This document shows positions 2,313-64,000 of a DNA stretch of 64,000 nt, one piece after another. The stretch lies in UHGV virus genome UHGV-0023958; one strand, 5' to 3'. Under the pieces are notes generated by a model. That model did not search any database, had not been told where the DNA came from, and saw only the letters and a list, made by a program, of their open reading frames with translations. Both the position numbers and the translations under genes were made by a program. Numbering within the stretch: the stretch's first letter is position 1; the number at the start of each line of letters is the position of its first letter. The DNA comes from a virus.

Positions 2313-4235
2313 ATGGCGAGTTCCAATAATACGGAGAAGAAGAAAGTCGGAAGACCTAAGAAAGTACAGGCTATACCTGTTGTAAATGAAGAAGAAAAGA
2401 AACTGCGTATGGAAGACAGTGGCGATGATTTTATTACTGTTGAAGATTTACGCAGAGATTTAACTTCTGTTTATCAAAAAGTTTATGGTTATTACACAAA
2501 GGAAGGCGTGCAAGGAAGTCTTGTAGATTGGAATAAATATAATCCGTTTTTGCAAGAAGACAGACTTAGACAGACTTTAACTGCACAGGGAAAGCAACTT
2601 AGTAAAGAAGATTTATATAAAGCGATATCAAATCCAGATGGTAGTGAAAATGCTTTACAGGGACAATCGTGGCAGGAGTCTTTTAATCAATATCTTTATT
2701 ATAAGATGATTAGAATGTCAGCAGATGTTCCTCTTTATAAGCATTATATTACACCAGAATATTTAGAAGCAAAAGATTATAACTCAAAAGATTTTAAAAA
2801 AGAAGATAAATATGTAAGAAAATGGGTTAAAACGTTTGATATTGTTAAAACATTAAAAACAACAGCCTTGGAAGTTAAACGCGCTGGTAAAGCGGCTTAT
2901 CTTCTTAGAAATAGCGTTGATTACGAAAAAGGGGAAGTAAATTATTGCACTTGGCAAAAGCTTCCAGATAATTTTATCAAGATTACTGGGATTGGAGAAA
3001 AGACGTATCTGGTAAGTTTAAATATGTTATTATTTTTAAATCCCGTCTTCTCGTTAGATTACTATCCTCCTTATATAAGAGATATTTTCGATGATATGAT
3101 CAACAAAGGGGTTATTTCTCCGAGTGAGTTTGGACCAAATGGAAACGTTGTGAGATATTCTTTAAACTCAGAAGAATTTTACGATTATAATAACGCAAAC
3201 GGTATCAAACAAATTGTTCGTATGGGGCGTAAAACAGATTATATGTTTTGGGTTCAATTACCGCAAGAAGTTTGTTATGTATTTTCATCAGATGCTTCTC
3301 ACCCTTGGAAGATTCCAGATACAACTGGACTTCTGGGGCAATTGAGAGAACTTTCGGACTATGCAACTTTGGCTGGTTTGATTGCAAGTACACCTTTAAC
3401 AGCGTTGCTTACTGGTGAAATTGAGCCGATTTCAGATGCTCGTCCTGGTGCAAACCAAAGTATTTTCGGTATTGAAGAAATTACTGGTGCCGTAAATAAC
3501 TTTAATGCCATTACATCAACAAACGTAGAAGCACTTGGCTTGCCTTTAAAAAATATTAAATTACAAAGTTTACCTTCGCAGCCAAACAGTTCTGATCTTG
3601 TTACAAAAGCTACACAGAACGTAATTACAATGGCTGGAATGGGTGGTTTGATTGCTGCAACAGATAAACCTTCTGTAGCACAAGTTAAAGCAGCACAATA
3701 TCTTGAAGAAGCGCAGGAAGATTATGTTACAAGACAGTTTGAATCTGTATTAAATTATATTATAAACCACTTTATTGGTTGTAAATACGAATGGAAATTA
3801 CATCTTTGGGGTGGTATATTTACATTCGGAGATGATGTGGCGCGTATGAAGGAGATGTGGCAAGGCGGTGCTACTTTCTTAATGCCGCGCATTGCTTCGG
3901 CATTTGATATGGATTTGCACGAAGTAAAAGCAACCGACGCATATATTAAATCGTTAAATGTTTATGATGACTTTGTTACAGTAACGCAACAAACCAGAGT
4001 AGATGTAAAAGGAAATGATGACTCTTCGACAAAAGAAAAGGTTGGGAGACCTTCTAAAACAGAATCAGAAATTGACAATGACAATACGGCAAAATCAATC
4101 GATCAAGGAACAAATACTGGCGATATGAGAGACTATGTAAAAATGTCATTGGAAAAAGGCAAGTGTGTAATTTGTGGCAATGATTCTGATGGAATTTTGT
4201 GCGAAGAATGTGCTGAAAAATATATGGAGGTTTAA
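2313..4235 (+). CDS. Putative portal protein (640 aa) with a C-terminal CxxC…CxxC zinc ribbon.
   Basis: GGGAGG ribosome-binding site. The size and the position upstream of the protease/scaffold and capsid genes suggest a portal. No diagnostic motif was seen, so the call rests on position. Confidence 0.4.
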   Translation: MASSNNTEKKKVGRPKKVQAIPVVNEEEKKLRMEDSGDDFITVEDLRRDLTSVYQKVYGYYTKEGVQGSLVDWNKYNPFLQEDRLRQTLTAQGKQLSKEDLYKAISNPDGSENALQGQSWQESFNQYLYYKMIRMSADVPLYKHYITPEYLEAKDYNSKDFKKEDKYVRKWVKTFDIVKTLKTTALEVKRAGKAAYLLRNSVDYEKGEVNYCTWQKLPDNFIKITGIGEKTYLVSLNMLLFLNPVFSLDYYPPYIRDIFDDMINKGVISPSEFGPNGNVVRYSLNSEEFYDYNNANGIKQIVRMGRKTDYMFWVQLPQEVCYVFSSDASHPWKIPDTTGLLGQLRELSDYATLAGLIASTPLTALLTGEIEPISDARPGANQSIFGIEEITGAVNNFNAITSTNVEALGLPLKNIKLQSLPSQPNSSDLVTKATQNVITMAGMGGLIAATDKPSVAQVKAAQYLEEAQEDYVTRQFESVLNYIINHFIGCKYEWKLHLWGGIFTFGDDVARMKEMWQGGATFLMPRIASAFDMDLHEVKATDAYIKSLNVYDDFVTVTQQTRVDVKGNDDSSTKEKVGRPSKTESEIDNDNTAKSIDQGTNTGDMRDYVKMSLEKGKCVICGNDSDGILCEECAEKYMEV

Positions 4236-4240
4236 TTATT

Positions 4241-4444
4241 ATGGGATGTAATCATAAAATTAATTCAAAAACTACCTCTATTCAAATTGAAAATGAATTT
4301 GCGACAATGACCACGCCGAGAATATATTTTGGATTTTGTCCGATTTGTGGTAAAGGTTTCAAATTTATAAAAGAAAATAATAAATATATTCAATTTAAAG
4401 AAGGAGGTATTGATGATTATGCAGATGTCCAAAGAGACTTATGA
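4241..4444 (+). CDS. Small zinc-ribbon protein (CPICG). It overlaps the next gene, so either could be the real one.
   Basis: GGAGG site and ATG at 4241, 67 aa. Confidence 0.3.
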   Translation: MGCNHKINSKTTSIQIENEFATMTTPRIYFGFCPICGKGFKFIKENNKYIQFKEGGIDDYADVQRDL

Positions 4445-4928
4445 CAAAATGAACTATTTGCTTGGAAAATCTTTTGATTGTAACGCTCAAACAGATAATT
4501 TTGCCTATAATATTGATTATGCAAGATATCCAGTTACCGCCGATATTTTTCATCATAGTTTTGCACACGAGTTTCCTGTTTTTGCAGATACAGTCTCAGA
4601 TTTAATGATTAGGTTAGATTCAAGACCGATTAGAAAGCAAATAAACGGATATGACAAAGATTATGAGGGTAATTTGGCTGCTATTTTTGCAGACAACCTT
4701 TTAATGTGTGAGACGTATAGACAAGATATTATCGACACAATCGAAGTTGCAGAGTTTAATGGGGATTATGAGGTAAAGATTAAACTGGAAGAATTTTTAC
4801 TTGGATTTGTTCCTTATAGAAAGCAAGCAGATATCTGGGCTGAAATGGCTAAGAGATACGAGGGTGATTATAAATCGTTCGAAGCGAGAATGGAAACCTT
4901 CACTACTTTTATAGAAATTAAAAAGTAA
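4413..4928 (+). CDS. hypothetical protein (head-module)
   Basis: AAGGAGG followed by ATG at 4413, TAA stop. Confidence 0.5.
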   Translation: MIMQMSKETYDKMNYLLGKSFDCNAQTDNFAYNIDYARYPVTADIFHHSFAHEFPVFADTVSDLMIRLDSRPIRKQINGYDKDYEGNLAAIFADNLLMCETYRQDIIDTIEVAEFNGDYEVKIKLEEFLLGFVPYRKQADIWAEMAKRYEGDYKSFEARMETFTTFIEIKK

Positions 4929-4945
4929 AGTGAGGGAAGTACATT

Positions 4946-5717
4946 ATGGCAGAGACGATTAAATTAATTATACAATACGGAATATACCCTGTCATGATGG
5001 CTGCTCTTATTATAGCGTTTTTATGTCTTAGTAAGAAAAACACAGAAAAAAATAATGTAGAAAATGCTCAAAATAATTTATAGTTGATGCAGTCGGCTGT
5101 AAAAGAAGGAATGAAAGATTTTGGAGATAATTTTAAAAGTGAATTGAGAGAAATTGTCGAAGAAGTGAAAAAACCAGCAATTCATACAGTGCAAGATGAA
5201 CAATGCAATCATGCTATAAATGAATATATAGACCAACAGCTTTCTTGCATTATAAGAGAAATTAAAGCAGATAGAGCTTTGTTCTTTTCTTATCATAATG
5301 GTGGTACTGATATTTTGGGAAGAGGTTTTCAAAAAATGTCAATTACCAACGAACAAGATTCCAGTTGGACTGCTCCTGTTATGGGTGATTTTCAAAATAT
5401 ACCCAGAACAATGTTCTCGATTTTGTTTAAAAATCTTGCTAAAAATAATATTTATTGCATTATGGATTTGAATGATATAAAAGAAGAGGATGGTGCTTCT
5501 TATCAATTATTCCAATCCCATAATGCAAAACAAATAATATGCCAGGCATTAAAAACAGAAGATGGTTTAATGGTCGGCTTTATTGTTGCTGAATTTATTA
5601 CGATTGGCTGCGCTGATTTGAATAGAGCAAAAGAAATTTTAAATAGAAAATCTTTAAGAATTACTGGTGCGTTATTAGGGCATTTAGGAGGTTAGGCTGA
5701 TGGAAAACGAGATTAAA
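4946..5717 (+). CDS. Membrane-anchored protein. An N-terminal transmembrane helix is fused through an in-frame TAG to a 203-aa domain.
   Basis: GAGGGAAG site and ATG at 4946. The sequence MAETIKLIIQYGIYPVMMAALIIAFLCL… runs in frame through TAG at 5081 into the ORF starting at 5084, which has no ribosome-binding site of its own. A second TAG sits at 5693 and the first true stop is TAA at 5715-5717. Confidence 0.45.
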
Positions 5718-7475
5718 ACGATGAAATTTGAGCTGAACTCCAAACAGCTCAAATACAGGGATATATTAAATAAAGAGTTCTTAGAACTTGAGGTTTGGGC
5801 TATTTCAGATATTAACCCGAACAGAAACAATAGTCACTTTACAAAAGAAAGTATGGAAAATGCGTTATCGACTTTTAAAAACAAACCAATTGTCGGCTTG
5901 TTTCAAAAAGATGATTTTGTTGACCATGCTGGAAAGATAGATTACGATAACGAATTACATAAACAGTTTTGGAACGTTGAAAGTGGTGAACGAATTCTTG
6001 GTGTAATTAGAGAAAGCGATCCTGTTGAACTTGTTGAAAAAGACGGCTTAAATTGGATTAAATTCAGATGTATTTTATGGGTTCAATATTGCTATAAACA
6101 AGTACGAAAATTATTAAAAGACAGAACAAAGAAAGTCTCTGTCGAAATCACAATCAAAAATTCGGAAGAAGATGAGAAAGGTGTGTTGCAAATTAACGAG
6201 TTTGTCCTTAACGGCGTAACAATTCTCGGTACAAAAAATGGACGAAAAGTAATAGAGGCTATTCCAGATGCTCACCTTTCAATATTAGAAGATTTGGAAG
6301 AAAATGAATCTTTTAATGAACAAAAGAAAATGTTGACATTTGCGTATCAACAAATTGATACGACAGATGATAATCAATATTATAATGAAGACAAGGAGGT
6401 AAAAATGGAAATGGGTTCTATTAAAGTTAATAAATCCAAAGAAGCTATGTCCGATAAAGACTGGGGTTCGGTAGATAAGACGGCTTTGAGAAAGAAAGTT
6501 GTTGAAGCCGAAAACTTTAAAGAAATCGCTGATGATATCTTTCTTGATCTTCGTGAAGGCTGGGAAGACGGTGAAGTTTCAAAGTTAAAATATCCAGTGA
6601 TGGAAATTAATGGCGATGAAGCTGTTTATAATCGCGGCGGTCTTGGTTCTGCTAAAGCTTATGCCGAAAAAAACAACGAAACAGAAGTTTTGTCAAAGCT
6701 TAAAAAGATTTATGAGCATCTCGGCTTGAACGAGGATGAAGAAGAATCTTATGCTTGCGAAGACTTCTGCGATGATTACGAAGAACAAAAACCCGCCGAA
6801 GAAGATGAAACGCAAAAGTGTTCGGAAGAGCCTGAAGCGGATAAACCAAAAGAGAGCGAAGAACAGTGCAGCGTTGTTTCCGAAGATGGTAAATGTTCTG
6901 CTGATGACGAGCATGACGATGATCATCACGACGATGATGACTGTGATGATTGCGATCCTGAAGGCAAACCAGAAGAAGAGTGTAAAATGAGTGAAGAAGA
7001 AATTTGTGAACTTAAAAAAAAATGTTCTTCTTATGAGGAAAATCTTTGTAAATTACAGGAAAAATGCGAAGCTTACGAGAAAGAACTTTGCGAGTGCAGA
7101 GAAAAGCTCGAAGGTTGCAAAGATTACGAAGATATTAAATCTCGTTTGAGCACTGCCGAAGGAAAACTTTTCGACATTTTCTGCAAAGAGATGGTTGCCG
7201 CCGCAGAAGAAATGATGGCTGGCAAAATGCTTATTGACGAAGATAAAGAAGAAATTAAAATGAAAGCTTCCAAGGGCGAATATGCTTCGAAAGAAGAAAT
7301 TGCCCGCGCTGTTGGATATGCTATGTTTAAAGCAGCTCCAATGGGACAGAAAGAAGAAAAGAAAGATGGGTGCTATGCAATGCCCGTTTACTCGCCTTTT
7401 GAAACAACGGTTGAACCGAAGAAAGAAAAGACGAGATCAGAAAGACTTGCTAAATATGCAGGTATTAAAGAATAA
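5700..7475 (+). CDS. Prohead protease (HK97 S78/U35-like N-terminal domain) fused to an acidic, Cys-rich coiled-coil scaffold-like C-terminal region.
   Basis: N-terminal pattern …NPNRNNSHFTKESMENALSTFKNKPIVGLFQKDDFVDH…ILGVIRE…EKDGLNWIKF resembles prohead proteases. The C-terminus is D/E/H-rich (DDEHDDDHHDDDDCDDCD) with a periodic Cys/coiled-coil stretch. It lies immediately upstream of the capsid gene. Confidence 0.5.
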   Translation: MENEIKTMKFELNSKQLKYRDILNKEFLELEVWAISDINPNRNNSHFTKESMENALSTFKNKPIVGLFQKDDFVDHAGKIDYDNELHKQFWNVESGERILGVIRESDPVELVEKDGLNWIKFRCILWVQYCYKQVRKLLKDRTKKVSVEITIKNSEEDEKGVLQINEFVLNGVTILGTKNGRKVIEAIPDAHLSILEDLEENESFNEQKKMLTFAYQQIDTTDDNQYYNEDKEVKMEMGSIKVNKSKEAMSDKDWGSVDKTALRKKVVEAENFKEIADDIFLDLREGWEDGEVSKLKYPVMEINGDEAVYNRGGLGSAKAYAEKNNETEVLSKLKKIYEHLGLNEDEEESYACEDFCDDYEEQKPAEEDETQKCSEEPEADKPKESEEQCSVVSEDGKCSADDEHDDDHHDDDDCDDCDPEGKPEEECKMSEEEICELKKKCSSYEENLCKLQEKCEAYEKELCECREKLEGCKDYEDIKSRLSTAEGKLFDIFCKEMVAAAEEMMAGKMLIDEDKEEIKMKASKGEYASKEEIARAVGYAMFKAAPMGQKEEKKDGCYAMPVYSPFETTVEPKKEKTRSERLAKYAGIKE

Positions 7476-7591
7476 TTGTTAAAACATAAAGCGGTTATAA
7501 ATTATAATCGTTTTTTTAAATTTGTTTTCTATGCGTGGATAAGCTACGCGTGAAAATATTATAAAATATATTTTATAAGGAGAAAGAAATT

Positions 7592-8152
7592 ATGGCTATT
7601 AAAGTTTTTGCTTGTGCTGAAATGGCTTCTGAAGATGTTCAGAGCTATTGCGTAAGTGCTAAATTCTATGCCGACGATGCGTATGCGAAAATCCACGACG
7701 GTGCGCTCGTTGTTCTTGGCGATCTTGACACAAATGATGCGTATGGTACGCCCGACTACAATATCTACAAGGCTACTAAACCCACTGCTGCTGCAGACGA
7801 GGTTGTTATCGTTGACCTTGCTGGTATCAACGAAGCGACGGTCCAGGGCAACATCATGAAGATTGGTAACAAGCTTGTTGATCTTGAAGCTGGTGAAGGT
7901 ATTGCGGTTCGTTGCCGTAGACTTATTAAGGGTGATAGAATGTGGATGGGCAGAGGCCTCTTTACAGCTGCTCCCACCGTTGGTCAGTTTGCTGGTACGA
8001 CAGCAAATAACACGTTGCTTACTCCCAGCCAGGATGCTCCTGCAGCTGGTCTTAAACTCAAAGTGCTTGCTTCCAAAGGTCTTACCGTTGGTCAGTCGGC
8101 TTATGCGGAAGGTGCTGGTTACGAACAGCTTTACCTCTGCGAAGTAAAATAA
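7592..8152 (+). CDS. Putative head decoration or auxiliary capsid protein.
   Basis: Elevated GC and codon bias suggest a highly expressed structural gene. It sits between the scaffold and the capsid gene. AAGGAGA site. Confidence 0.35.
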   Translation: MAIKVFACAEMASEDVQSYCVSAKFYADDAYAKIHDGALVVLGDLDTNDAYGTPDYNIYKATKPTAAADEVVIVDLAGINEATVQGNIMKIGNKLVDLEAGEGIAVRCRRLIKGDRMWMGRGLFTAAPTVGQFAGTTANNTLLTPSQDAPAAGLKLKVLASKGLTVGQSAYAEGAGYEQLYLCEVK

Positions 8153-8171
8153 TTTAAGGAGGTAAACTATT

Positions 8172-9257
8172 ATGATGACTATGTTTAATTATAATCGTAA
8201 AGATGCAGATTTCAACGAAATTATCGATGAGTGCCTTGCATTGTTCAACGAAAACATCGAAGGTCAGTCCTCTGACTATAAAGAAAGAAACAAAATCCTC
8301 AACGCTGCGATTGCGAAGTATGCTGTAAGCGGTACTCGTTTCGAATCTATGTTCGAAGAAAAGGGCGTTGAAATTTTCAAAGATCCTCGCGTTACGAAAA
8401 ATGCAGAAGTTCGTGACAACTACAACGTTGTTGTTTCCGAATATATTAACTCCGCACTTCCTTCCGTTACGTCAAAGCTTTACAACCAGTTCTTCGCGGA
8501 AATCCGTCAGGTTGGTTGGGGTGAAACAGCGAAATTCGAAGTTACTTCGAACGAGCTTTATCAGGTAAACGAAGTTGCTGAAGGTGTAAACCGTGGCGTT
8601 CTTCAGCCCATCTATAACAACGAATTCACTGTAAACTGCAAAGTTACAGAGGTTGCGGCTGCTATTGATTGGTATCCTGTTGCTGCTGGTGTGTTCGATT
8701 GGGGTGATTTCGGCCGTCGTTACACGATGTCCTTCCAGAGCTACATCCAGTTGAAGATCATGAAGGCTCTTACTGCTGCTACGAATCAGATCGGTGCGGC
8801 TTATCAGGCTGCTGGTATTGATACAGCTAACTGGACGAATATTGTTGACAGAGTATCTGCGGCGAACGGCGGTATGCCTGTTGTTGCGCTTGGTACCCTT
8901 GCAGCTCTTAACAAAGTAATCCCTTCAACTGTTGGTCTTCAGTATGGTCTTGGCAGCGAAATCGTTAAGGAAGGTAAGCTTGATCGTTATCTTGCTACCG
9001 AACTTATCGCTATCGATCAGGCTATGGTTCCTGGCACTGTAAATACAACAGCACAGCTTTTGCTTCCTACGAACAAGATTTATTTCATCGCTCGTGGTGC
9101 ATACAAGCCTGTTAAGGTTGTATTCGAAGGTGCAAGCTCCGTTGTTGAAGCTATTCCCGATGAGTGCACAGATAGACAGTACAAGATTCGTATTCAGGAA
9201 CACGTTGGTGTTGATGCCGTTGTTGGTTCGAAATTCGGCACGATTACCCTTGCGTAA
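8172..9257 (+). CDS. Putative major capsid protein (361 aa).
   Basis: AAGGAGG site, strong codon bias, a size typical of HK97-fold capsid proteins, and position after the protease/scaffold. Confidence 0.5.
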   Translation: MMTMFNYNRKDADFNEIIDECLALFNENIEGQSSDYKERNKILNAAIAKYAVSGTRFESMFEEKGVEIFKDPRVTKNAEVRDNYNVVVSEYINSALPSVTSKLYNQFFAEIRQVGWGETAKFEVTSNELYQVNEVAEGVNRGVLQPIYNNEFTVNCKVTEVAAAIDWYPVAAGVFDWGDFGRRYTMSFQSYIQLKIMKALTAATNQIGAAYQAAGIDTANWTNIVDRVSAANGGMPVVALGTLAALNKVIPSTVGLQYGLGSEIVKEGKLDRYLATELIAIDQAMVPGTVNTTAQLLLPTNKIYFIARGAYKPVKVVFEGASSVVEAIPDECTDRQYKIRIQEHVGVDAVVGSKFGTITLA

Positions 9258-9259
9258 GC

Positions 9260-9288
9260 TTAAAATTGCTTGACAATACAAAAATAAT
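9260..9288 (+). promoter_or_regulatory. sigma-A type promoter: TTGACA, 17-nt spacer, TGaTATAAT
   Basis: -35 at 9260-9265 and an extended -10 at 9280-9288. It drives the endonuclease cassette. Confidence 0.55.
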
Positions 9289-9393
9289 ATGATATAATAT
9301 AGATGTTCTTGGTGGGACAGGGACGGCCATCCTTTCTGTGTGCCACAACATGCAGATTACCACCTTGAAACATTTGCCTTTGTGGAGGTTATT

Positions 9394-10890
9394 ATGCAGA
9401 ACATTGATAGTGAAAAAATATATCAATATTATATTATTGAAAATCATTCTCGTCAAGAATCAGCTTCGATTTTTGGTATTTCGGAAAGCAAATTAAAAAA
9501 GATTTGCTCTGATAATGGTTGGAAGAAGGATAGAAAACTTCATAATCAAAATATTGGAAAATCGAAAGCTTATAAATTTGATAGAGTAAATGAATTAAAA
9601 CAATTATATATTGATGAAAATAAAACCAGAAAAGAAGTTTGCGAACGTCTTGGCTTGTCTCTTGCGGTATTTAAAAGGATTTGTCGTGAAAATGACATTG
9701 GAAAAACAGACGAAAATCGTATTTTTAATACAAACAAAACAATTTCAGAAAAATATGGCGAGAGTAATTTTGGGAAATTAACTTCAAGAGAAGAAATAAT
9801 TAACAAAAGAAAACAAACTAATTTGAAAAAATATGGGTGTGTTAACCCAACTCAAAACGAAAAAATTCAAGAAAAAATGAGGTTGTCTAATTTAAGAAGA
9901 TCACCAAATAAATCAAGTATTGGATTGACAATAGAAGAAGTCAATAACATTGTTTCTTCTAAAGATAGTTTTGAAAAATTTGTAAAAGATAGAGATGTTC
10001 ATACGACAGTTCAAATAGCAGAAATGCTTGGATATGGTCTTTCTGCAATAGAGCAATATATTGCTTTTTATAATTGTAGAGACTTAATAGATCCTATGAG
10101 TTCTGCGCCAGAACAGGAAGTAAGATTATTTATAGAATCTCTGGGTGTTAAAACAGAACATACCAGACAGATAATTCCACCTTATGAAATAGATATTTAT
10201 TGTCCAGATTATAAAGTCGGAATTGAATTCAACGGAACGTATTGGCACTCTTCTTTGAGAAAACAAAAATCTTATCATGAAGATAAAGCGAAAGCCGCTG
10301 AAAGAGCAGGTATTCGTTTGATACAAATTTATCAATATCAATGGGAAGATGAAAATTTAAGAGAAATACTTAAATCTGTTTTGAAAATTACATTCGGCAA
10401 AGTTGATTCTCGTATTTATGCAAGAAATTGTGAAGTTAGAGAAATAACAAACGAAATTGCAAAACCTTTCAATAATAAAAATCATCTTCAAGGGCATAGA
10501 AATGCAGCAATAACCTATGGTTTATATCATAATAATGAACTTGTTCAACTTATGAGTTTTTCTAGACATAATAAATATGAATGGGAAATCATCAGAGGTT
10601 GTCCTGGTTCTAATAATGTTGTTGTTGGCGGAGTTTCAAAACTCTTTAAACATTTTATAAAAAATTATAATCCAAATCAAGTATTCAGTTATTGTGATTT
10701 TAATACTTTTGACGGAAAAGGATATGAAGCAATCGGGATGAAGTTTATTGGATATACCGGTCCAGATTTGCGATGGATTATTAACGGCGATGTTAAGCAT
10801 CGTAGTCCGTCACACCATAAAGAATATAAAGAAAACGCAGAAGCCGTTATATGGGGCGCGGGCTCTAAAAAATATTTATGGACAAAATAA
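9394..10890 (+). CDS. DNA-binding protein with a C-terminal DUF559/Vsr-like (PD-(D/E)xK superfamily) endonuclease domain. It looks like a freestanding homing-endonuclease-like moron.
   Basis: …YEIDIYCPDYKVGIEFNGTYWHS…HEDKAKAAERAGIRLIQIYQY matches the DUF559 pattern (xIVDFYCP…EVDGxxH…D..R…L…G..VLR). Two HTH-like repeats sit at the N-terminus. The gene has its own promoter and terminator. Confidence 0.5.
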   Translation: MQNIDSEKIYQYYIIENHSRQESASIFGISESKLKKICSDNGWKKDRKLHNQNIGKSKAYKFDRVNELKQLYIDENKTRKEVCERLGLSLAVFKRICRENDIGKTDENRIFNTNKTISEKYGESNFGKLTSREEIINKRKQTNLKKYGCVNPTQNEKIQEKMRLSNLRRSPNKSSIGLTIEEVNNIVSSKDSFEKFVKDRDVHTTVQIAEMLGYGLSAIEQYIAFYNCRDLIDPMSSAPEQEVRLFIESLGVKTEHTRQIIPPYEIDIYCPDYKVGIEFNGTYWHSSLRKQKSYHEDKAKAAERAGIRLIQIYQYQWEDENLREILKSVLKITFGKVDSRIYARNCEVREITNEIAKPFNNKNHLQGHRNAAITYGLYHNNELVQLMSFSRHNKYEWEIIRGCPGSNNVVVGGVSKLFKHFIKNYNPNQVFSYCDFNTFDGKGYEAIGMKFIGYTGPDLRWIINGDVKHRSPSHHKEYKENAEAVIWGAGSKKYLWTK

Positions 10891-10913
10891 AACTTAAAAA
10901 TATTAAGTTTTTT

Positions 10914-10940
10914 CAACCGCATGAAGCGGTTGTTTTTATT
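10914..10940 (+). terminator. Rho-independent terminator: 7-bp stem CAACCGC/GCGGTTG, loop ATGAA, then a T-run.
   Basis: Read from the sequence directly after the endonuclease gene. Confidence 0.5.
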
Positions 10941-10963
10941 TGATTAAAAGGAGATTAAAAGTT

Positions 10964-11689: not shown

Positions 11690-11724
11690 CAAATAATAAT
11701 ACATTAAAAAGGGAGGCATCGTAT

Positions 11725-12736: not shown

Positions 12737-12742
12737 TTTGTT

Positions 12743-13885: not shown

Positions 13886-13897
13886 AGGTGGTGTGAT

Positions 13898-15486: not shown

Positions 15487-15500
15487 TTACATTAAAAATA

Positions 15501-53568: not shown

Positions 53569-53573
53569 TAAAA

Positions 53574-54527: not shown

Positions 54528-55000
54528 AAATCAAACAATTAATATATGAAGATTTTGTCAATTATAAAAAACCATCATTGTTCTTGGGAACTACCGCCTG
54601 TAGCTTTAAATGTGAGAAAGAGGCTAATTGCATTGGAATGTGTCAAAATTCAGATCTTGTTAAAAGCAAAACAATTGAAATTGATAATAAGATTCTAATC
54701 GATAGATATTTAAATAACGGTATTACGGAAGCCGTTGTTATTGGTGGATTAGAACCACTTGATACATTTGAAGATACTTTGCAATTCATTAAAGACTTTA
54801 GAGAAAAATCGGATGACGATATTGTTATATATACAGGTTTTAATGAAGACGAAATTGAAGATAAAATAGTTATTTTAAAAAAGTTTAAAAATATTATAGT
54901 GAAGTTCGGGCGCTATCGTCCGAACTTCCAAAAGCATTTTGATGAAGTGCTTGGAGTGGAATTGGCTTCTCCAAATCAATATGCTAAGAGAATGAGTTAA
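54524..55000 (+). CDS. nrdG: NrdG-like anaerobic RNR activating protein (small T4-type)
   Basis: Cys cluster CSFKCEKEANCIGMC, GGLEP like the GGEP motif, 158 aa, in synteny with nrdD. Confidence 0.5.
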   Translation: MKIKQLIYEDFVNYKKPSLFLGTTACSFKCEKEANCIGMCQNSDLVKSKTIEIDNKILIDRYLNNGITEAVVIGGLEPLDTFEDTLQFIKDFREKSDDDIVIYTGFNEDEIEDKIVILKKFKNIIVKFGRYRPNFQKHFDEVLGVELASPNQYAKRMS

Positions 55001-55021
55001 TTTTAAACAAGGAGGTTGTTT

Positions 55022-56240: not shown

Positions 56241-57050
56241 ATGATACCTAATAAAACAAAAGCATCTGAATATAGGGTGCGGACATTAGATAGAAATGAT
56301 TTAAATGAGAAAGGAACGATTTATATTGGTTAGGGCGGTACTTCTACTATTGATAAAGTTGAAAATATTTCCAATGTAGCGGCAATTAGTAAGCCAGATG
56401 ATGATTTAAACAAATCTGGTTATTATGCTTTAACGCTTGGAGGAAATGCAAATCAAGATGGAATTTGGGGCAGATTTTTACATGAGGTAGATTGCCAAAT
56501 AACACCAACTTTATTTCAATTAAACGAAGGAGCGCCATCTCTTCATAATCCTTATAAATATGTAATTCGCGGTGGGTATAAGTCGTTAAATATTAAAAAA
56601 AGTATATTTGATTCAACACTTACATATATAATGGATTATAATTCAAATTTATCATCTTTTTCTTCTGTTGATTAGAAAATATTTGCAAAATTATCTATGA
56701 GGGGATTTGTAGAATATGATACTCCGTTTGAAGTATATTCTTCTTTTGTTGCCTCTCAGAAGACTGGAAGTTCTTGGGAGTTATATCCTTTGAATTTTTC
56801 ACCGATTAATATTACAAAATTAAACGATAATTATATGCGAAATTTCCAAAGCATTGTTTTTTGTTCAAATGATACACCGTGGCAAGAAACTGCGGATGGT
56901 TTTCAATTAAACCTTCATGCAATCGGTATGGGAAATACATTAGAAGAGCAAAAATTATATTATTAGAAAAATGGCACTGGTGAAATTCTAACTGCTAATC
57001 TATCAAATATTTCATAGATTAGAGTAACTCAAATGTCTATTATTTTTTAA
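56241..57050 (+). CDS. hypothetical protein with 4 in-frame TAG codons
   Basis: AAAGGAG site. Frame 0 is open to TAA at 57048, with TAGs at 56331, 56673, 56964 and 57015. The end abuts a terminator. Confidence 0.4.
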
Positions 57051-57731: not shown

Positions 57732-58529
57732 ATGTCATTTCGTGAATTTTATAATGAAGATTGTTTTATAAATATGAAAGGGTTTAAAGATAAATCAATA
57801 AACCTTATTTTAACTTCTCCGTTTTATAATACGAATAAAAAAGCAGGGAAGAAAAATACGCTTGAAAACACAGAAATCAAAAAAGGAACATATTCTTATA
57901 TTAGATATGACGAACACGTCGATAATATGACGGACGAAGAATATGAAGATTTTACAAAAAGATTATTTAATGAATTTAATAGGATTGTTGTAAACAACGG
58001 TGTTGTTCTTTATAATCTTTCTTATAGCAACGATAATCCAGCAAATTTGTTTTCATTAGTTAATATGATTTGCGAAGAAACGAATTGGATGATTGCCGAT
58101 GTTATTGTTTGGAAAAAGAAAAGTGCTTTGCCGAATAATTGCTCTCCAAATCGCCTAACTCGTATCTTTGAGTTTATATTTGTTTTTTGCAGAAAAGGCG
58201 AAGAAAAAACTTTTTATGTAAATAAAAGGGTGATTTCATTACGCGCAACAGGGCAGAAATCGTATGAAAATATCTTTAATTTTGTCGAAGCGAAGAACAA
58301 TGACGGTCCGTGTCCGTTGAATAAAGCGACGTATTCAACTGATTTGTGCAAACAGTTACTTCGAATTTATGCAAATCCAGAAGACAAAGATTTTGTTGTT
58401 TACGATCCTTTTATGGGAACAGGGACAACTTTGGTTGCATGCAAGGAAATGGATATAAATTGTTTTGGTTGTGAAATTTCTAAAAAACAATGCGAGTGGA
58501 CGCAAAATCGCTTGACAAATCAAAACTAA
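57732..58529 (+). CDS. DNA methyltransferase, amino-MTase of N4-C/N6-A type with beta-class motif order
   Basis: Motif IV LILTSPFYN lies upstream of motif I DPFMGTGTT. Confidence 0.7.
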   Translation: MSFREFYNEDCFINMKGFKDKSINLILTSPFYNTNKKAGKKNTLENTEIKKGTYSYIRYDEHVDNMTDEEYEDFTKRLFNEFNRIVVNNGVVLYNLSYSNDNPANLFSLVNMICEETNWMIADVIVWKKKSALPNNCSPNRLTRIFEFIFVFCRKGEEKTFYVNKRVISLRATGQKSYENIFNFVEAKNNDGPCPLNKATYSTDLCKQLLRIYANPEDKDFVVYDPFMGTGTTLVACKEMDINCFGCEISKKQCEWTQNRLTNQN

Positions 58530-58540
58530 TGTGATATAAT
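58512..58540 (+). promoter_or_regulatory. sigma-A type promoter (TTGACA, 17-nt spacer, TGaTATAAT) for the suppressor tRNA
   Basis: -35 at 58512-58517 and -10 at 58535-58540; about 70 nt upstream of the tRNA. Confidence 0.5.
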
Positions 58541-58610: not shown

Positions 58611-58685
58611 TGGGGAATAGCATAACGGTAGTGCGGTGCTCTCTAAAAGCACTCTGTGTCGGTTCGAGCCCGACTTCCCCCGCCA
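58611..58685 (+). tRNA. amber suppressor tRNA, anticodon CUA (reads UAG), with Gln-like identity elements
   Basis: A manual cloverleaf gives a 7-bp acceptor with a T1·C72 mismatch. U8; D stem GCAT/GTGC with G18G19; anticodon stem GTGCT/AGCAC with loop CT-CTA-AA (U33, CUA at 58643-58645, A37); 5-nt variable loop; T arm GTCGG-TTCGAGC-CCGAC; G73; encoded CCA. G2-C71, G3-C70, G10, G73 and a weak 1:72 pair are the E. coli tRNA-Gln identity set. Confidence 0.8.
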
Positions 58686-58718: not shown

Positions 58719-59093
58719 ATGTCGTAGATACGTGAATCTTGTTATTTTTATACTTAGAAGGCAGCATCTTATGTCGGGAGTAGAGATTATGAAATCAAAT
58801 ACGATCCCGGCGTTTTCGTTGTATTTTCTGAAGATTTTTATCCCTTGGACGATGACAAATACCAATCGTGTTTATGCAGGAGTTTGAATTTGGCGAACGA
58901 ATATAACACAAATGTTTCTTATTCAGACAAGGAAGATTTGGCCAAAGCAATTTATTTCGATTTATATCAGAAACCAGATGAAACCATTTTTGTCTGCGAA
59001 AATGATGCAATTGCCGATGTGGCAAACAGGTATTTTGGCGAAGATAGTATTATAAACATTAAAAAGGTAATTGAGGAATTTGAAGAAAAATGA
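58719..59093 (+). CDS. hypothetical protein with TAG at codons 3 and 13, directly downstream of the suppressor tRNA
   Basis: GGAGG site 8 nt upstream of ATG 58719. Frame 0 is open to TGA at 59091. A TTG start at 58845 is the shorter alternative. Confidence 0.35.
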
Positions 59094-59582: not shown

Positions 59583-59611
59583 TTGACAAAAAGATTTTAA
59601 AGTGATATAAT
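59583..59611 (+). promoter_or_regulatory. sigma-A type promoter (TTGACA, 17-nt spacer, TGaTATAAT) for the replication module
   Basis: Read from the sequence. Confidence 0.5.
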
Positions 59612-59662
59612 AAAGAAAAAATGCAATCCGAAAGATTGCAAGATTATAAGGAGAAGAAATTT

Positions 59663-60742
59663 ATGGCAATGAATTTTACCTTTGTAGGTAAACTGAAAGC
59701 AGTCAAAGACAATGAGAAGTTTAAAGGTTATGAAGTAAGAACTTTTGAATCTGGTTGGGTGCAGACGAATTTGAAATTTAATGCGGTGAATGGAAACAAT
59801 CGCCACATGTTTCAGATTAAAGCTGGTTATTGGGGTGATAAGGACGGTAATGTCAATGAGAGCAAGACCGTAATTTACGCACCAGTAACAAACGAAGAAA
59901 CACACAAGACAACGAGAACCAAAATTGCTTATGTGAACAGGGAAGATGAAAGTGTTTTGAAGTCCGTTAGCAAGGGTGGTAAATATGTTCTTGATCTTCG
60001 TACGGATGAAAACCCAGCTGGTTATAAGGAATATATTTTCGAGAAAGATTTTATCGATGATGTTAAGAAACACATTCTCGAAAACACAAGAGTGTCAGAT
60101 GTGAGATTCAGAGTTCTCGGCGAGGTAGAAATCACTTATTCAGAGAGCAAAGGAAACTTTTATAAGACATTTATTCCGAAGAAAATTTATCTTGCAAAGG
60201 ACACCGAAGAAGATAAAATGCAGATCAACGCAAAGCTTATTTATGGAAGAACCAGCCTCGAAGATGTTGCGGGAACTGATAATTTTGTGCTGAACGCATA
60301 CTCCAGATATTATGATAATTCTTATAGAGGCGATAATTGCAAAGGATATTGCTTCTGCCCTGTAGAAGTAAATATTGTTCCAAAGAATGAAAAGCAGAAA
60401 GATTTGTTCGTTAAGAGATTCCGTGAATTCGAAACCGATTCCAGCGAATACAGGGAAATCGGTATGGTTATTGATGTAATTGACGGACAGGAAATTGTGC
60501 GCGTTACAGAAGATATGCTCGGCGAAGAAGCGAAAGAAAATATTGAGTATGGTTTCTCGACTTTGGAAGAAGAGTTGAAGAAAGCTGGTGGAACGACTTA
60601 TGGACCTCGTATTACAGAGTACAGATTCAATAACTGGGGTTCTCCGAGCGAAGACACTGTTTATCAGGATGAAGATCTTCTTCCGCCACATCACGATGAC
60701 GAAGAGAAATCTGATGACATTTTCGAAGACGATGAAATTTAA
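59663..60742 (+). CDS. putative single-stranded DNA-binding protein with an acidic C-terminal tail
   Basis: AAGGAGAAG site. The C-terminus …DDEEKSDDIFEDDEI resembles an SSB-type tail. It is adjacent to a Sak4-like ATPase, which is the usual Gram-positive phage arrangement. Confidence 0.35.
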   Translation: MAMNFTFVGKLKAVKDNEKFKGYEVRTFESGWVQTNLKFNAVNGNNRHMFQIKAGYWGDKDGNVNESKTVIYAPVTNEETHKTTRTKIAYVNREDESVLKSVSKGGKYVLDLRTDENPAGYKEYIFEKDFIDDVKKHILENTRVSDVRFRVLGEVEITYSESKGNFYKTFIPKKIYLAKDTEEDKMQINAKLIYGRTSLEDVAGTDNFVLNAYSRYYDNSYRGDNCKGYCFCPVEVNIVPKNEKQKDLFVKRFREFETDSSEYREIGMVIDVIDGQEIVRVTEDMLGEEAKENIEYGFSTLEEELKKAGGTTYGPRITEYRFNNWGSPSEDTVYQDEDLLPPHHDDEEKSDDIFEDDEI

Positions 60743-60758
60743 GTGGAGATAAAAAATA

Positions 60759-61928
60759 ATGGCATTTGTTAAACCCCAAATTAATACGATTAAAGCTGAT
60801 ATTGCAAATATTTCGATTTATCTTCGTTCGACGAAGAAATTCGGTAAAACCACACTTTTCAGAGATGTAATTCTCGAAAAGTATGGAGATCCATCTTACG
60901 GTCTTCTTGTTGGTTGCGGCGCAGAAGTTGGTTATAAACTTCTCGACAATTTGAACTGTGTTCAGGTTACGAGTTGGGAAGATTTGGTAGAACTTAAAAA
61001 GTGGCTTATCGAAACCAACGGCGTAGAACATCATATTAAAATTGTCGCGTTCGATACTGGCGATGAACTTGTTTTGCTTGCAGATAAGAAAACGATTGCA
61101 ATTAGCAATAAGGAAAACCCTCAGAAACCTTGCCGTTCAATTAAGGCGGCAATGGGTGGTTATACCGCTGGCGAAAAGTATTCCGCGAACAATTTGATTA
61201 AGCCTTATCTTTCCGATTTGCAACAGCACGGTTTTGCAACGTGGGTAATTGCGCACACGAAGTTGAAGACGATTAAAGATAAAGGTGCGCTTGAAGAAGA
61301 TGGATATCAGCAGCTGACTTCCAATCTTTCCGCTGATTATGAAGCTGCGTTCGGTGATGTATTTGACGTATGTCTTACTGGCGTTATCGACAGAATGCTC
61401 GAAACAAAGCAGGTTGGCAATGATAAGAAGAATGTTGTTACCGATACGGAACGTAGACTTTATTTCCGTGGAACTCCAATGATCGATGCTGGCGGTAGAT
61501 TTGCAGCTGGTACGGTTCCCGAATATATGGTGTTCGACAAAGATAATATGGCAGCAGACTTTATTAAGATTGTTGAAGGTGGTATGGAAAAGTCAAAACT
61601 TTCTGGTTTTAAAGTAAAGGCAAAAGTAGAAGACAAACCAGTTGTTGAGGCAAAACCAGTTGTTAAACCCGTTGTGAACACGGCGGCTGAAGTTGAAGAA
61701 GATGAACCGCCTTTTGATGCCGATAGTTCGGCGAGTGAAGATGAAGAAGTTTATTCGCTGCCAGAAAGACTTGCGGCGGTTCGCGAAGCGTTTAAAAATG
61801 CTGGTAAAGAATTGAAAGATCAAGTTAAGGCAATTCTTATCGCGAATGGCAACGGTCAGGAAAAAGCAAAACTTGATAATCTTCCTGTTGAAGAGCTTGC
61901 AAAAGTAGAGGCCATCCTTGGTCTGTAA
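60759..61928 (+). CDS. Sak4/AAA_24-like RecA-fold ATPase (recombination/annealing)
   Basis: P-loop-like STKKFGKTTLF and a Walker-B-like IVAFDTGDEL; an acidic linker is also present. Confidence 0.4.
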   Translation: MAFVKPQINTIKADIANISIYLRSTKKFGKTTLFRDVILEKYGDPSYGLLVGCGAEVGYKLLDNLNCVQVTSWEDLVELKKWLIETNGVEHHIKIVAFDTGDELVLLADKKTIAISNKENPQKPCRSIKAAMGGYTAGEKYSANNLIKPYLSDLQQHGFATWVIAHTKLKTIKDKGALEEDGYQQLTSNLSADYEAAFGDVFDVCLTGVIDRMLETKQVGNDKKNVVTDTERRLYFRGTPMIDAGGRFAAGTVPEYMVFDKDNMAADFIKIVEGGMEKSKLSGFKVKAKVEDKPVVEAKPVVKPVVNTAAEVEEDEPPFDADSSASEDEEVYSLPERLAAVREAFKNAGKELKDQVKAILIANGNGQEKAKLDNLPVEELAKVEAILGL

Positions 61929-61985
61929 TTAGAACAATTATAAGGGCGAGATTTTTCTCGCCCTGTAATAAACATCGGAGAGAAT

Positions 61986-62522
61986 ATGGCACTTGGTTAT
62001 TGTAAATGTGGTTGTGGGCAAATGTTGGAAACAACAACGAGTTATTCGATTAAATTACCCACAAATAAGAAACTTTATTTTGTAAATGCGGATCATTATG
62101 GGAAATGGAAAGAAAACGCCGCAGTCGGAAAAACAAAAGTTAATGAAGAAGAGCTTTCTCCGATTTATGATTTAGTTGCAGATATTATTGGCAAAAAATT
62201 AGATACTAAAACAATGTTATGGAAATATTATGTGCAATGGAAAAAAATTGCAGATAAGGACACGTTGCTTTATTATCTTAAATCTGAAAAGTGGAATTTG
62301 CAGAAAATATTCCAAAAGAAAGACATTTATACTGCTTATGCGAGTTTGCAATATTTGAACGGAATTATCAATAATAATTTGCCGAATTATAAAGTAGAAG
62401 CAGAGGCACTCGCTCCCAAGCAAGATGATATGGATGTAAAAGAGAATAAGGGAAGTTATGCAGAAACTAATTCTAAACGCAAAAAATCACTTGCTGAATT
62501 GGAGGAAGAGGCTGAATGTTAA
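61986..62522 (+). CDS. hypothetical protein with an N-terminal CKCGCG zinc-binding motif
   Basis: GGAGAGA site. Confidence 0.5.
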   Translation: MALGYCKCGCGQMLETTTSYSIKLPTNKKLYFVNADHYGKWKENAAVGKTKVNEEELSPIYDLVADIIGKKLDTKTMLWKYYVQWKKIADKDTLLYYLKSEKWNLQKIFQKKDIYTAYASLQYLNGIINNNLPNYKVEAEALAPKQDDMDVKENKGSYAETNSKRKKSLAELEEEAEC

Positions 62523-64000
62523 ATAAAGAGCAGTTTGTTGTTGGTATTACAGAAAAATACCCAGAAGAGTTACTCGAAGGGCGAATGACGATTGAAGGGA
62601 ATTACCTCGCGTGTTTGTTTTCTGATTTAACTTATTATGACGATATTAAACAATGCGTAACAGAAAATAATTTCATTACGCAGCAGGGTAGATTTTTGTT
62701 TTGCTTAATTCGCAGTTTACGTGAGAAAGGTTTCTCGGTAACGGACGAGGTAACGATTTTGTCTAACTGCGAAGAAACTGTTAAAGACCGCCTTGATGGA
62801 ATGGGTGGCTTTAGAGCAATTCAGAAATTGATGAGTGTTGTTGATATTAAAAACTGGGATGCAATTGCAGATAAGTTCAACAAGAGTAATGTAATTTTAA
62901 AATTATACGACAACGGGTTCAATCTCTTTGAAAAGGTAACGCTCGATAAAGGCAAGGAAATAACTCCGATTAAGTTGTTTAAGAACTTCGAGTGCCAAAA
63001 CGTAATTGATTGGTACGAAGAAAGACTTTCCAAAATTTCCATTGATAATAATAATTCATCAAGTAAAATTACTGGAGAAGAGTATATTAGTTTTGATGAC
63101 GATTTTGTAGCCGATTTAATGAAAGGTGAAGGCGCAGGAATTTCTTTCGGCGATGCTGGGAAAGATGTAAACGGCGATGATATTTATATGTACCCGTTTT
63201 TATCTAAAAATATTCTTGGTTTGGCAAGAGGAACAACAACGGCTTTGGCAAGCCATTCTGGCAATGGTAAAACAACGCTTATATTAAATATCGTATTTTC
63301 ATTGATAGCACATGGACAAAGAGGAATTTTTGTTACAAATGAAATGACGATTAAAGATTTAAAAGTTATTATGCTTTTAATTATATTGACAAGATATTTT
63401 TGTTATTGGAAGATTAATAAGAAAAAGTTGAAGACAGGCGATCTTACAGACGAAGATAGAGATATGATTAGAAAGGCAAATCAATACTGGAAAGAAAATA
63501 TGGCAGACGCGTTAAAGATTGTTTCGATGTCTGACTCGGATGCGAATTTAAGTAATCAGCTTATTCGAAAGGAAGCTTTAAGAAACGGGATTGATTTCTT
63601 TGTTGTTGATACTTTTAAATTAAGTTTGGGCGAAGGGAATACAAATGATAACTTTTGGATCAATCTTATTAAAGACGCTCGCGCTTTGGACTCGATTGCG
63701 AAGAAACAAAATATGATTGGCCTTTATACGATTCAGTTGACAGCTACGAGTATCGGAGATTTGTTTTTGACAGAAAGTGCTTTGAGTAATTCAAAGCAGA
63801 TAAAGGAAGTTCTTTCGAATTTGATTATTATGAGAAAGATGTACCCCGAAGAGTTTGAGCCTGGAAGTCCTTACGATTGCAAACCGTTCCGCTCGCAGTT
63901 GCAAGAGGACGGAACTTGGAAGGAAGAGGATTTTGTTCCAGAAGAAGATAAAACTTATCGCTGCGTGCTCCTTAATAAAACGAGAAGCGGAGCTGACAGT
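62516..64000 (+). CDS. dnaB: DnaB-like replicative helicase (3'-truncated by the window end)
   Basis: Walker A SHSGNGKTT and Walker B DFFVVDT. The DnaB C-terminal pattern LGLARGTTTALASHSGNGKTTLILNIVFSLIAHGQRGIFVTNEM is present. The frame is open to the window end. Confidence 0.75.
   Translation, partial: MLNKEQFVVGITEKYPEELLEGRMTIEGNYLACLFSDLTYYDDIKQCVTENNFITQQGRFLFCLIRSLREKGFSVTDEVTILSNCEETVKDRLDGMGGFRAIQKLMSVVDIKNWDAIADKFNKSNVILKLYDNGFNLFEKVTLDKGKEITPIKLFKNFECQNVIDWYEERLSKISIDNNNSSSKITGEEYISFDDDFVADLMKGEGAGISFGDAGKDVNGDDIYMYPFLSKNILGLARGTTTALASHSGNGKTTLILNIVFSLIAHGQRGIFVTNEMTIKDLKVIMLLIILTRYFCYWKINKKKLKTGDLTDEDRDMIRKANQYWKENMADALKIVSMSDSDANLSNQLIRKEALRNGIDFFVVDTFKLSLGEGNTNDNFWINLIKDARALDSIAKKQNMIGLYTIQLTATSIGDLFLTESALSNSKQIKEVLSNLIIMRKMYPEEFEPGSPYDCKPFRSQLQEDGTWKEEDFVPEEDKTYRCVLLNKTRSGADS

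Follow-up and report, generated by a model that had tools for sequence, protein, structure and literature searches.

The sequence analysed here is a stretch of 64,000 nt from the virus genome UHGV-0023958 (the window; positions are counted from its first nucleotide), in which in-frame TAG codons are frequent in some genes and missing from others. All long open reading frames (ORFs) of the window lie on the + strand. They form a head/connector/tube block, a fibre cassette, a tail block with a very long tape measure gene, an early operon and a set of replication genes, and a gene for an amber suppressor transfer RNA (tRNA) lies in the early region (Table 1). ORFs were called with only TAA and TGA as stops, and in-frame TAGs were then counted gene by gene, which gave 66 TAGs for the whole window. 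The close relatives of this phage, referred to as siblings or clade A, are ten IMG/VR contigs of 94–148 kb with capsids 96–99% identical, and an ENA contig of 149 kb (also found as a Logan duplicate) that represents the closest relative; there are 11 clade genomes in all.

Table 1. Features of the window and the in-frame TAG codons that they contain.
Feature	Position	Strand	TAG codons and remarks
GIY-YIG homing-endonuclease-like gene	395..1621	+	4 TAGs
Head/connector/tube block	1834..16626	+	TAG-free in this genome except 4946-5716
Portal (head block)	2313..4235	+	0
Membrane protein (head block)	4946..5716	+	codons 46 and 250; TAG-rich in all siblings, TAG/(TAG+CAG) 0.49
Head block gene	5700..7475	+	0
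Head block gene	7592..8152	+	0
Capsid (head block)	8172..9257	+	0
YomU-type tube (head block)	15568..16626	+	0
Virion gene	16854..18179	+	codon 427; siblings have TAG or CAA there
Fibre/receptor-binding cassette	18191-18787, 18792-20267, 20309-22048, 22054-25200	+	TAG-free here and in all siblings
Late gene	25310..25696	+	1 TAG
Late gene	25633..27396	+	1 TAG
TAG-free island in tail block	27571..30551	+	holin-like 27634-27960, 28187-28858, tyrosine integrase 28861-29883, 29901-30551
Small gene directly 5' of tape measure gene	30572..31060	+	codon 5, in every sibling homologue found
Tape measure gene	31063..39387	+	35 TAGs in 2,774 codons; PF10145 and PHROG
TAG-free pair between tape measure and distal tail	39410-40168, 40179-40838	+	0; second gene encodes a membrane protein
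Late gene	40901..41737	+	single TAG, codon 115
Distal tail/baseplate/tail-fibre-like genes	42065..50764	+	42065-46201: 8; 46173-47789: 1; 47812-49062: 2; 49073-50764: 3; sibling homologues 1-12 each
Early operon	50867..56227	+	all TAG-free; dUTPase 50913-51437, NrdD 51643-53568, HNH, NrdG-like, 55016-56227
Last gene of early operon, no assigned function	56241..57050	+	4 TAGs; then terminator-like hairpin at 57061-57094
Sigma-70 type promoter of suppressor tRNA	58512..58540	+	
Amber suppressor tRNA, anticodon CUA	58611..58685	+	found by ARAGORN, Rfam and fold
First ORF 3' of suppressor tRNA	58719..59093	+	codons 3 and 13
Replication genes	59583..64000	+	all TAG-free; 59621-60742, AAA_24 60759-61928, 61986-62522, DnaB 62516->

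The tape measure gene is identified by PF10145, which matched residues 1207–1421 (E=6e-32), and by eleven PHROG tape-measure families, some of which aligned over residues 1026–2512. Profile matches were also obtained for the portal, a tube-like virion protein and the tyrosine integrase, while the fibre genes gave weak tail/minor-tail matches. In the PHROG search 47812–49062 was tail/baseplate-hub-like and 49073–50764 tail-fibre-like. Family searches supported the identities of the GIY-YIG endonuclease, dUTPase, NrdD, AAA_24, DnaB, an HNH endonuclease and a methyltransferase, and returned nothing useful for 58719, 59090, 56241, 30572, 40901, 25633 and 42065. The Pfam families YonB, YonD_N, YonJ_N, YomU_Tube, YomW, YomX_C and XepA are assigned to homologues of the capsid, the tube and neighbouring proteins of the window. 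Taking these precomputed hits, which are on the homologues and not on the window's own proteins, together with the shared gene order, the phage is predicted to be an SPbeta-like siphovirus with a YonB-type capsid, a YomU-type tube and a conserved gene order.

When TAG is read through, the region 31063–39387 fuses to one ORF of 2,774 codons and 42065–46201 to one of 1,378 codons. The coverage by ORFs of at least 100 amino acids (aa) rises from 0.76 to 0.92, all 51 genes terminate at TAA or TGA, and the PF10145 and PHROG tape-measure profiles span TAG positions. In codon-by-codon alignments to the siblings, TAGs of the window face TAG (108), CAG (34) and CAA (27), and sibling TAGs face CAG (64) and CAA (49) in the window; among the other alignment partners, Glu, Lys and Asp codons predominate, from parts of the tape measure that align poorly. 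Since TAG aligns with CAG and CAA in both directions, we conclude that it encodes Gln. The phage as a whole is predicted to read UAG as Gln (genetic code 15). Only three ORFs called with the standard code (code 11) end in TAG and have a short extension, and at the terminal-looking TAGs of 4946 and 16854 siblings carry CAG or CAA. We also considered that the 2,774-aa ORF consists of several genes ending in TAG. This was rejected, because the TAG positions are not conserved and align with CAG/CAA, and it is also contradicted by continuous tape measure ORFs in unrecoded relatives. Likewise, a special context of the base following TAG (+4) was rejected, as TAG and CAG have the same context (P=0.34). 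At the 3' end of the capsid gene, four siblings (L006–L009, around 11040–11071) have ...VVG-TAG-AAG-CAT-TTT-TGA in place of ...VVG-SKFGTITLA-TAA. This TAG could be a stop or Gln, and it coincides with a different insertion 3' of the capsid gene.

The CTA tRNA is the only tRNA that ARAGORN found, and it matches Rfam family RF00005 at 52.8 bits. In its predicted fold the acceptor stem has a U1-C72 mismatch followed by G2-C71 and G3-C70, a discriminator G73 and an encoded CCA, features that presumably match the identity rules for tRNA-Gln known from the literature on glutaminyl-tRNA synthetase (GlnRS). The tRNA thus fits a Gln-type, supE-type suppressor, as judged from its sequence. Suppressors of the supE type insert Gln at UAG, and the E. 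coli supE amber suppressor (tRNA-Gln, CUA) resembles the window tRNA in its anticodon and in the Gln-type acceptor features. Unlike supE, the window tRNA is phage-encoded and would be the sole reader of dozens of essential codons; its charging is predicted from sequence. A 42-nt core of the tRNA is identical in ten sibling contigs. Its promoter is a perfect TTGACA-17-TATAAT with an extended -10 TG and is conserved in all siblings. No gene for a release factor (RF) or an aminoacyl-tRNA synthetase (aaRS) was found in the window. The short gene 58719–59093 uses the consensus promoter of the tRNA, and its stop overlaps the start of 59090 (ATGA). Its two TAG codons are conserved in all siblings that could be read here (10/10), which have two alleles of the protein, and the gene may serve as a readout of the code switch or require it.

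The TAG codons are distributed very unevenly. The block 25310–50764 contains 53 of them, the early genes 6, the head block 3 and the fibre genes none. Expressed as share of Gln codons, TAG makes up 53/332 (16%) in the tail, 3/174 (1.7%) in the head, 0/65 (0%) in the fibres and 6/125 (4.8%) in the early genes. The tail differs from the head (Fisher test, P=1.3e-7) and from the fibres (P=7e-5), and it still differs from the head when the tape measure gene is left out (P=6e-4). When TAG was shuffled among Gln codons in 20,000 permutations, the maximum for the block was 47, and 53 was never reached. In the tape measure gene TAG accounts for 1.26% of all codons. Out-of-frame TAG is abundant everywhere and has its peak in the fibre genes (24–34 per 1000 codons) despite zero in-frame TAGs, which places the pattern at the level of codons and not of base composition. 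The fraction (TAG+CAG)/Gln is nearly equal in head (0.38) and tail (0.31), from which it follows that TAG has replaced CAG. Gene length is no predictor of TAG share (rho 0.25, P=0.18).

An initial annotation had placed about 53 TAGs in this block and 1.3% in the tape measure gene, and both values are borne out by our recount. The genes that it had named as TAG-free (portal, capsid, fibres, dUTPase, NrdD, DnaB and others) all gave zero, as did 5700–7475, 59621–60742 and the Sak4/AAA_24-like gene, and the TAG-bearing outliers that it had listed (GIY-YIG, 4946, 56241 and 58719) contain 4, 2, 4 and 2 TAGs. Its statement that head and early genes have no TAG holds for most of them, but the TAG at codon 427 of 16854–18179 had been overlooked. 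The contiguous TAG block stands as a block, though six TAG-free genes lie inside it, four in the integrase island and two between the tape measure and the distal tail. The term bimodal is appropriate for the comparison between blocks and not for individual genes, since for each single gene with zero TAGs P is at least 0.05; heterogeneity inside the tail block is not significant (P=0.40). Uniform TAG density, which would have spoken against the uneven pattern, did not appear, and the block contrasts were strong after the gene boundaries had been called again.

The siblings show how these codons behave over time. The tape measure gene carries 29–36 TAGs in every sibling, though the alleles are merely 61–78% identical. 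Over seven genomes there are 102 TAG sites in this gene, and 2 of these are fixed; in 47812 one TAG site is fixed in 10/10 siblings. TAGs are also found in sibling head genes at positions where the window has CAG or CAA, namely in the portal (two siblings) and in the families of 12743, 11725 and 14554. The closest relative, with a tape measure N-terminus 99.6% identical to that of the window, has TAGs in the homologues of 12743, 14554 and 16854. Head TAGs are mostly singletons, including those of the portal type, and the families 4946, 14554 and 16854 are TAG-rich in siblings with TAG/(TAG+CAG) of about 0.5. As these sibling TAGs align with CAG/CAA of the window, the head is translated in the same TAG=Gln setting. 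The head module is thus best described as TAG-poor and, by this comparison of sequences, would not be TAG-incompatible.

Four coding states occur in the wider family. Clade B (L045–L050, L028, L033; IMG/VR 3300045988_165036, _157852, _159590 and others) comes from the same sample and is a sister group of clade A; its tail module is syntenic, its NrdD 85% identical and its tape measure 32–34% identical to the window. Its tape measure and tail genes contain no in-frame TAG and it has almost no TAG stops; no tRNA was found within 10 kb 3' of NrdD, and no suppressor tRNA at the syntenic place. An intermediate density is seen in L056 (Logan SRR14160746_3800; 3635–15484), a syntenic region with a tape measure of 3,949 aa that contains 15 TAGs and has TAG/(TAG+CAG) of 0.23. 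In L057 (ENA ERZ27298472 k141_143188), with a tape measure core 45% identical, TGA is needed as a sense codon. Under TGA read-through, positions 5417–15274 of this contig form one tape measure ORF of 3,285 aa with 8 TGA, two distal tail ORFs at 16351–21219 contain 10 TGA each, and ORF coverage increases from 0.65 to 0.90. From both L056 and L057 the tape measure/tail regions were sampled. That the tape measure and distal tail are again the recoded genes in these relatives could be due to weak constraint on proteins that are large and of low copy number, or to adaptation. Three long contigs with capsid homologues (L059–L061) were considered as a test of the contrast between head and tail in other recoded lineages, but they are ordinary standard-code phages of 41–44% GC with no in-frame stops and were of no help. 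Megablast of 2313–50000 (in two halves) against GenBank phages gave no match, and the portal found one remote record in the GenBank phage collection by tblastn (24% identity). In the bacterial/archaeal genome collection the sole match was L052 (CALUZL010000157.1), a 4.4-kb contig of an uncultured Erysipelotrichaceae metagenome-assembled genome with a capsid 59% identical, which is a weak hint to a possible Firmicutes host. When its capsid was scanned against viral contigs for head regions of clade B, nothing was found.

To what extent mutation alone accounts for the TAG content can be judged from synonymous positions. T/(T+C) at fourfold degenerate sites is 0.74–0.84 in all blocks, and TTG/(TTG+CTG), a Leu pair that also differs at the first position, is 0.85–0.97. 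In the tape measure gene TAG/(TAG+CAG) is 0.70, which does not differ from an expectation of 0.8 (P=0.11); values of 0.61–0.70 were obtained for this gene in all, not above the mutational expectation of about 0.8. The ratio is 0.38 in the other TAG-bearing tail genes, 0.14 in early genes, 0.05 in the head and 0 in the fibres. TAG thus looks near neutral in the tape measure, and it is its removal elsewhere that needs explaining. We therefore compared, within clade A, CAG-majority columns that have a TAG variant with C-ending synonymous columns that have a T variant. In the abundant head proteins (capsid, 7592, 10940 and tube) none of 28 CAG columns had a TAG variant, while 83 of 164 synonymous columns had a T variant (P=3e-8). 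The values were 4/21 versus 155/232 for other head genes (P=2e-5), 5/15 versus 124/178 for other tail genes (P=0.008) and 5/9 versus 60/73 for the tape measure (P=0.08). Variants changing CAG to CAA are frequent in head genes (50–71%). We conclude that purifying selection has kept TAG out of the head genes for as long as the clade has existed, irrespective of where the module came from.

Codon usage points to one possible reason for this selection. All 14 Gln codons of the capsid gene and all 6 of 7592–8152 are CAG, with no CAA in either, and the G+C content at third positions (GC3) is about 0.4 in these two genes and the tube gene, compared to 0.16–0.3 elsewhere. The abundant virion proteins are under strong translational codon bias. 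With the fibres left out, TAG/Gln falls as an index similar to the codon adaptation index (CAI), calibrated with capsid, 7592 and tube, rises (rho=-0.56, P=0.004). Expression-linked codon bias accounts for part of the pattern only.

The initial annotation had suggested that the tail module was imported and the genome caught as a mosaic in mid-transition. In this scenario, a backbone using the standard code would have acquired the tail block by recombination from a lineage that is recoded throughout. Module histories indeed differ, since the siblings have diverged more at synonymous sites of the tape measure and tail genes (0.2–0.37) than at those of head genes (0.07–0.17), and module exchange is real in this group, as seen for NrdD and the fibres (below). 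However, comparison of tetranucleotide signatures from 4-kb segments and of relative synonymous codon usage (RSCU, Gln excluded) revealed no discontinuity at the borders of 25310–50764. In their signatures, segments of the tail correlate with segments of the head (r 0.52) just as well as with one another (r 0.50), and RSCU correlates with r 0.92–0.95 among ordinary head, tape measure, other tail and early genes (0.93–0.95 for tail and head); the compositional outliers are the TAG-free fibre cassette and the codon-biased abundant virion proteins. Moreover, the backbone itself has the suppressor tRNA and the TAG-bearing genes 4946, 16854, 56241 and 58719, sibling head genes carry TAG=Gln, and the selection against TAG in the head is measurable inside the clade, independent of origin. 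The pattern is common to all 11 clade genomes. Clade B, which has the nearest tail modules outside clade A, has zero TAG there and is TAG-free in the sampled tail and early genes, and no relative with the same backbone and an unrecoded tail was found. As the pattern is stable across tape measure alleles of 61–78% identity, it is no snapshot of a transition. Import of the tail block is largely refuted by these findings and hardly credible.

In the reverse scenario, the head module came recently from a standard-code lineage, swept through the clade and is too young to have gained TAGs. The head genes are 95–99% identical among siblings with a fourfold divergence of about 0.12 versus 0.32 in the tape measure, and the head TAGs are singletons, as this scenario predicts. 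In the same span, however, 51–67% of the C-ending sites of the head gained T, with CAG changing to TAG at 0/28 and 4/21 columns. The TAG-rich families 4946, 14554 and 16854 belong to the head block, and the closest non-clade capsid in 262 clusters has 62% identity, with no donor in sight. We regard a recent origin of the head module as highly improbable.

The fibre cassette differs from both head and tail. It is TAG-free in all siblings (0/267 pooled Gln codons), has the lowest GC3 of the window (0.16–0.18) and is an outlier in its k-mer signature (r 0.17–0.29). The fibre alleles differ by 50–65% even from the closest relative and are swapped between near-identical genomes. A fibre domain of 131 aa (20486–20878) is 70% identical to L053:11225–11617, with 77% nucleotide identity over 239 bases, and occurs in fibres of hundreds of phage contigs of about 30 kb with 41% GC; in L053, the one such contig that was examined, genes have neither in-frame TAGs nor TAG stops. 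Exchange is also evident for NrdD: the protein of the window is 85% identical to that of clade B and 49% to that of a clade A member (L042:891–2825), in which the flanks of NrdD are 94–98% identical to the window. This indicates that TAG-free genes move between clade A and its unrecoded sister clade. The simplest reading is that the fibre gene pool may be shared with TAG-intolerant phages.

Taken together, the genetic code, the suppressor tRNA, the TAG counts, the signal of selection, the homogeneous composition and the state of the relatives make it probable that the uneven map results from near-neutral TAG in the tape measure and tail combined with purifying selection elsewhere, on a uniform C-to-T pressure. 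The window would be part of an SPbeta-like siphovirus of about 130–150 kb that uses code 15 throughout its genome, and its own Gln-type suppressor tRNA, transcribed in the early region from a consensus promoter of host type, would supply the reading of UAG. In the tape measure and distal tail, TAG would be an almost neutral synonym of CAG that has drifted near mutational equilibrium while its positions turn over. Genes transcribed from sigma-70 promoters (replication, nucleotide metabolism, integrase island) may have been purged of TAG because they are translated before, or without, the suppressor. Intergenic + strand matches of at least 11/12 to the sigma-70 consensus lie at 9270, 27571, 50867, 57081, 58512 and 59583, with 11/12 for 27571–27598 and 50867–50895 and a perfect match for 59583–59611, and all six precede the tRNA or TAG-free genes. 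Purging would be strongest in the abundant CAG-biased virion proteins (capsid, 7592–8152, tube) and clear also in other head genes such as the portal, and the fibre cassettes are most likely TAG-free through module swaps with lineages unable to read TAG. A side effect would be that proteins of the tape measure and the tail tip are not made until the suppressor works. The difference in selection between genes may thus have its reasons in timing, expression level, harm by truncated products and module exchange.

Several points weigh against this explanation. The synonymous control relates to third positions and the change from CAG to TAG to a first position, while for Leu CTR/TTR, the control that addresses the first position directly, few columns are available, and as the genomes are related, the alignment columns are not independent. 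Portal and tape measure have the same value of the CAI-like index (0.49) but TAG/Gln of 0.01 versus 0.19. The TAG-rich sibling families 4946, 14554 and 16854 lie in the head block, and 56241 and 58719 in the early region carry TAGs. A tape measure gene with 35 TAGs needs very efficient suppression, and a translation cost in the head is thus less obvious.

Translational gating of a late module, which the initial annotation had also proposed, fits a published model (Borges et al., bioRxiv 10.1101/2021.08.26.457843), but is not needed to account for the data. In its adaptive form, positive selection would keep the TAGs so that low-copy tape measure and tail-tip proteins track suppressor activity, with head and fibres exempt. 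The steady TAG count of the tape measure (29–36) over such divergent alleles is in agreement with this, as are fixed TAGs near N-termini (codon 5 of 30572 in every homologue found, codons 3 and 13 of 58719 in 10/10), the fixed site of 47812 and the recoding of the same tail genes in L056 (TAG) and L057 (TGA). TAG in the tape measure is, however, at or below the mutational expectation, 100 of its 102 sites are not fixed, and fixed TAG sites are conserved no better than T-ending synonymous sites (about 71% invariant). In addition, the tRNA promoter is a consensus promoter that looks constitutive, TAG is tolerated in sibling head genes including the portal, the base at +4 does not distinguish TAG from CAG, and the measurable signal is purifying selection outside the module. 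We consider selected gating unlikely. An extended version, in which TAG density acts as a graded throttle that keeps the tape measure and tail tip low and late relative to head and fibres, with 58719–59093 as sensor or relay of the code switch and convergence in L056 and L057, is more speculative still and doubtful on present data. If it were true, one and the same sub-module of the late regulon would have adapted convergently in these lineages. Near-neutral TAG in the tail and purifying selection elsewhere remains our preferred explanation.

Some further features of the window were observed. The GIY-YIG gene has a very low G+C content (0.23) and no homologue in the sibling loci that cover this region; the end of another ORF lies at 1–171. 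Directly 3' of the capsid gene, a gene for 516 aa (9270–10890) combines RWP-RK/helix-turn-helix and restriction-endonuclease-like domains and has its own perfect sigma-70 promoter. As only part of the siblings have it, while the others lack it or have something else in its place, it looks mobile. The integrase and its 223-aa neighbour (28187–29883) are located amid tail genes behind a sigma-70-like promoter, and this arrangement is kept in siblings, L056 and L061, suggesting a temperate or plasmid-prophage lifestyle. The virion genes 16854, 39410 and 40901 share an N-terminal motif, YLDYAK..GYILNFFAD..ED (16854–17000, 39455–39560 and 40901–41000), that is possibly an attachment domain common to all three. 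The window showed no recoded lysis cassette, and its holin-like gene is devoid of Gln codons.

It is a matter of debate whether the distribution of recoded codons over the genes is due to regulation or to drift. The phage described here provides a clean case, with one gene class at mutational equilibrium and another with a measurable deficit of changes from CAG to TAG, and its relatives span four states (unrecoded and TAG-poor, lightly TAG-recoded, heavily TAG-recoded, TGA-recoded) that make drift plus purifying selection versus gating testable on real genomes. For annotation this means that phages with code 15 may hold large stretches that look standard, and that the code call must not rest on head genes.

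Late-gene recoding in phages with a suppressor tRNA, TAG-free integrases and block-wise codes are established. In the model of Borges et al. (10.1101/2021.08.26.457843) for late-gene stop-codon recoding, genes that can be read in the standard code are expressed ahead of the change of code, which the positions of the sigma-70 promoters in the window match. A TAG-depleted standard-code state is proposed as precursor, and clade B corresponds to this state. In published recoded phages, structural and lysis genes and the homing endonuclease are recoded, and integrase and replication genes are not. The phages of PMC7886860 and of Peters et al. (PMC9523058) resemble the window in their in-frame TAGs in structural genes, low GC, a Sup-CTA tRNA in a standard-code-compatible region, TAG-free integrase and replication genes, a recoded homing endonuclease and TAG stops nearly unused in close unrecoded relatives. 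As expected for code 15, recoded codons of the window are enriched late and avoided in early, replication and integrase genes, but enrichment is limited to a part of the late genes. Unlike those phages, the window belongs to an SPbeta-like siphovirus lineage of about 135–150 kb, its late genes are split into TAG-free or TAG-poor ones (capsid, portal, tube, fibres) and a tape measure near equilibrium, and its holin-like gene lacks Gln codons, with no recoded lysis cassette, RF or aaRS seen in the window.

The phage phAss-1 of the proposed Phassvirus (Babkin et al. 2023, PMC10607447), a siphovirus type of about 136 kb from a gut virome, has a tape measure of 3,149 aa and shares with the window TAG=Gln with a tRNA-Sup-CTA, no phage aaRS, a very long tape measure, genes for NrdD activation and dUTPase, and recoding that varies between orthologues of close relatives. 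In phAss-1, TAG interrupts the TerL, portal and tape measure genes and a tail fibre gene, whereas portal and fibres of the window have none; TAG-free portal and fibres are therefore specific to the lineage of the window. Membership in Phassvirus was rejected, since no similarity to OQ749652, BK046881 or BK025033 was found (megablast nil; the one match of the portal is a different record). Genomes with block-wise dual codes were described with Mgcod (bioRxiv 10.1101/2022.06.29.495998) and, like the window, combine standard-compatible stretches with stretches that need TAG read-through. Unlike in those genomes, the blocks of the window are not clean, as they include a TAG-free integrase island and single TAG-bearing genes in "standard" blocks, and the siblings show that the block borders are statistical and not absolute. 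Bacillus phage SPbeta has virion module families in common with the window (YonB, YomU_Tube and others), a similar genome size and a giant tape measure; the standard-code members of this type (L059–L061) have 41–44% GC, whereas the clade of the window has 33% GC and is recoded.

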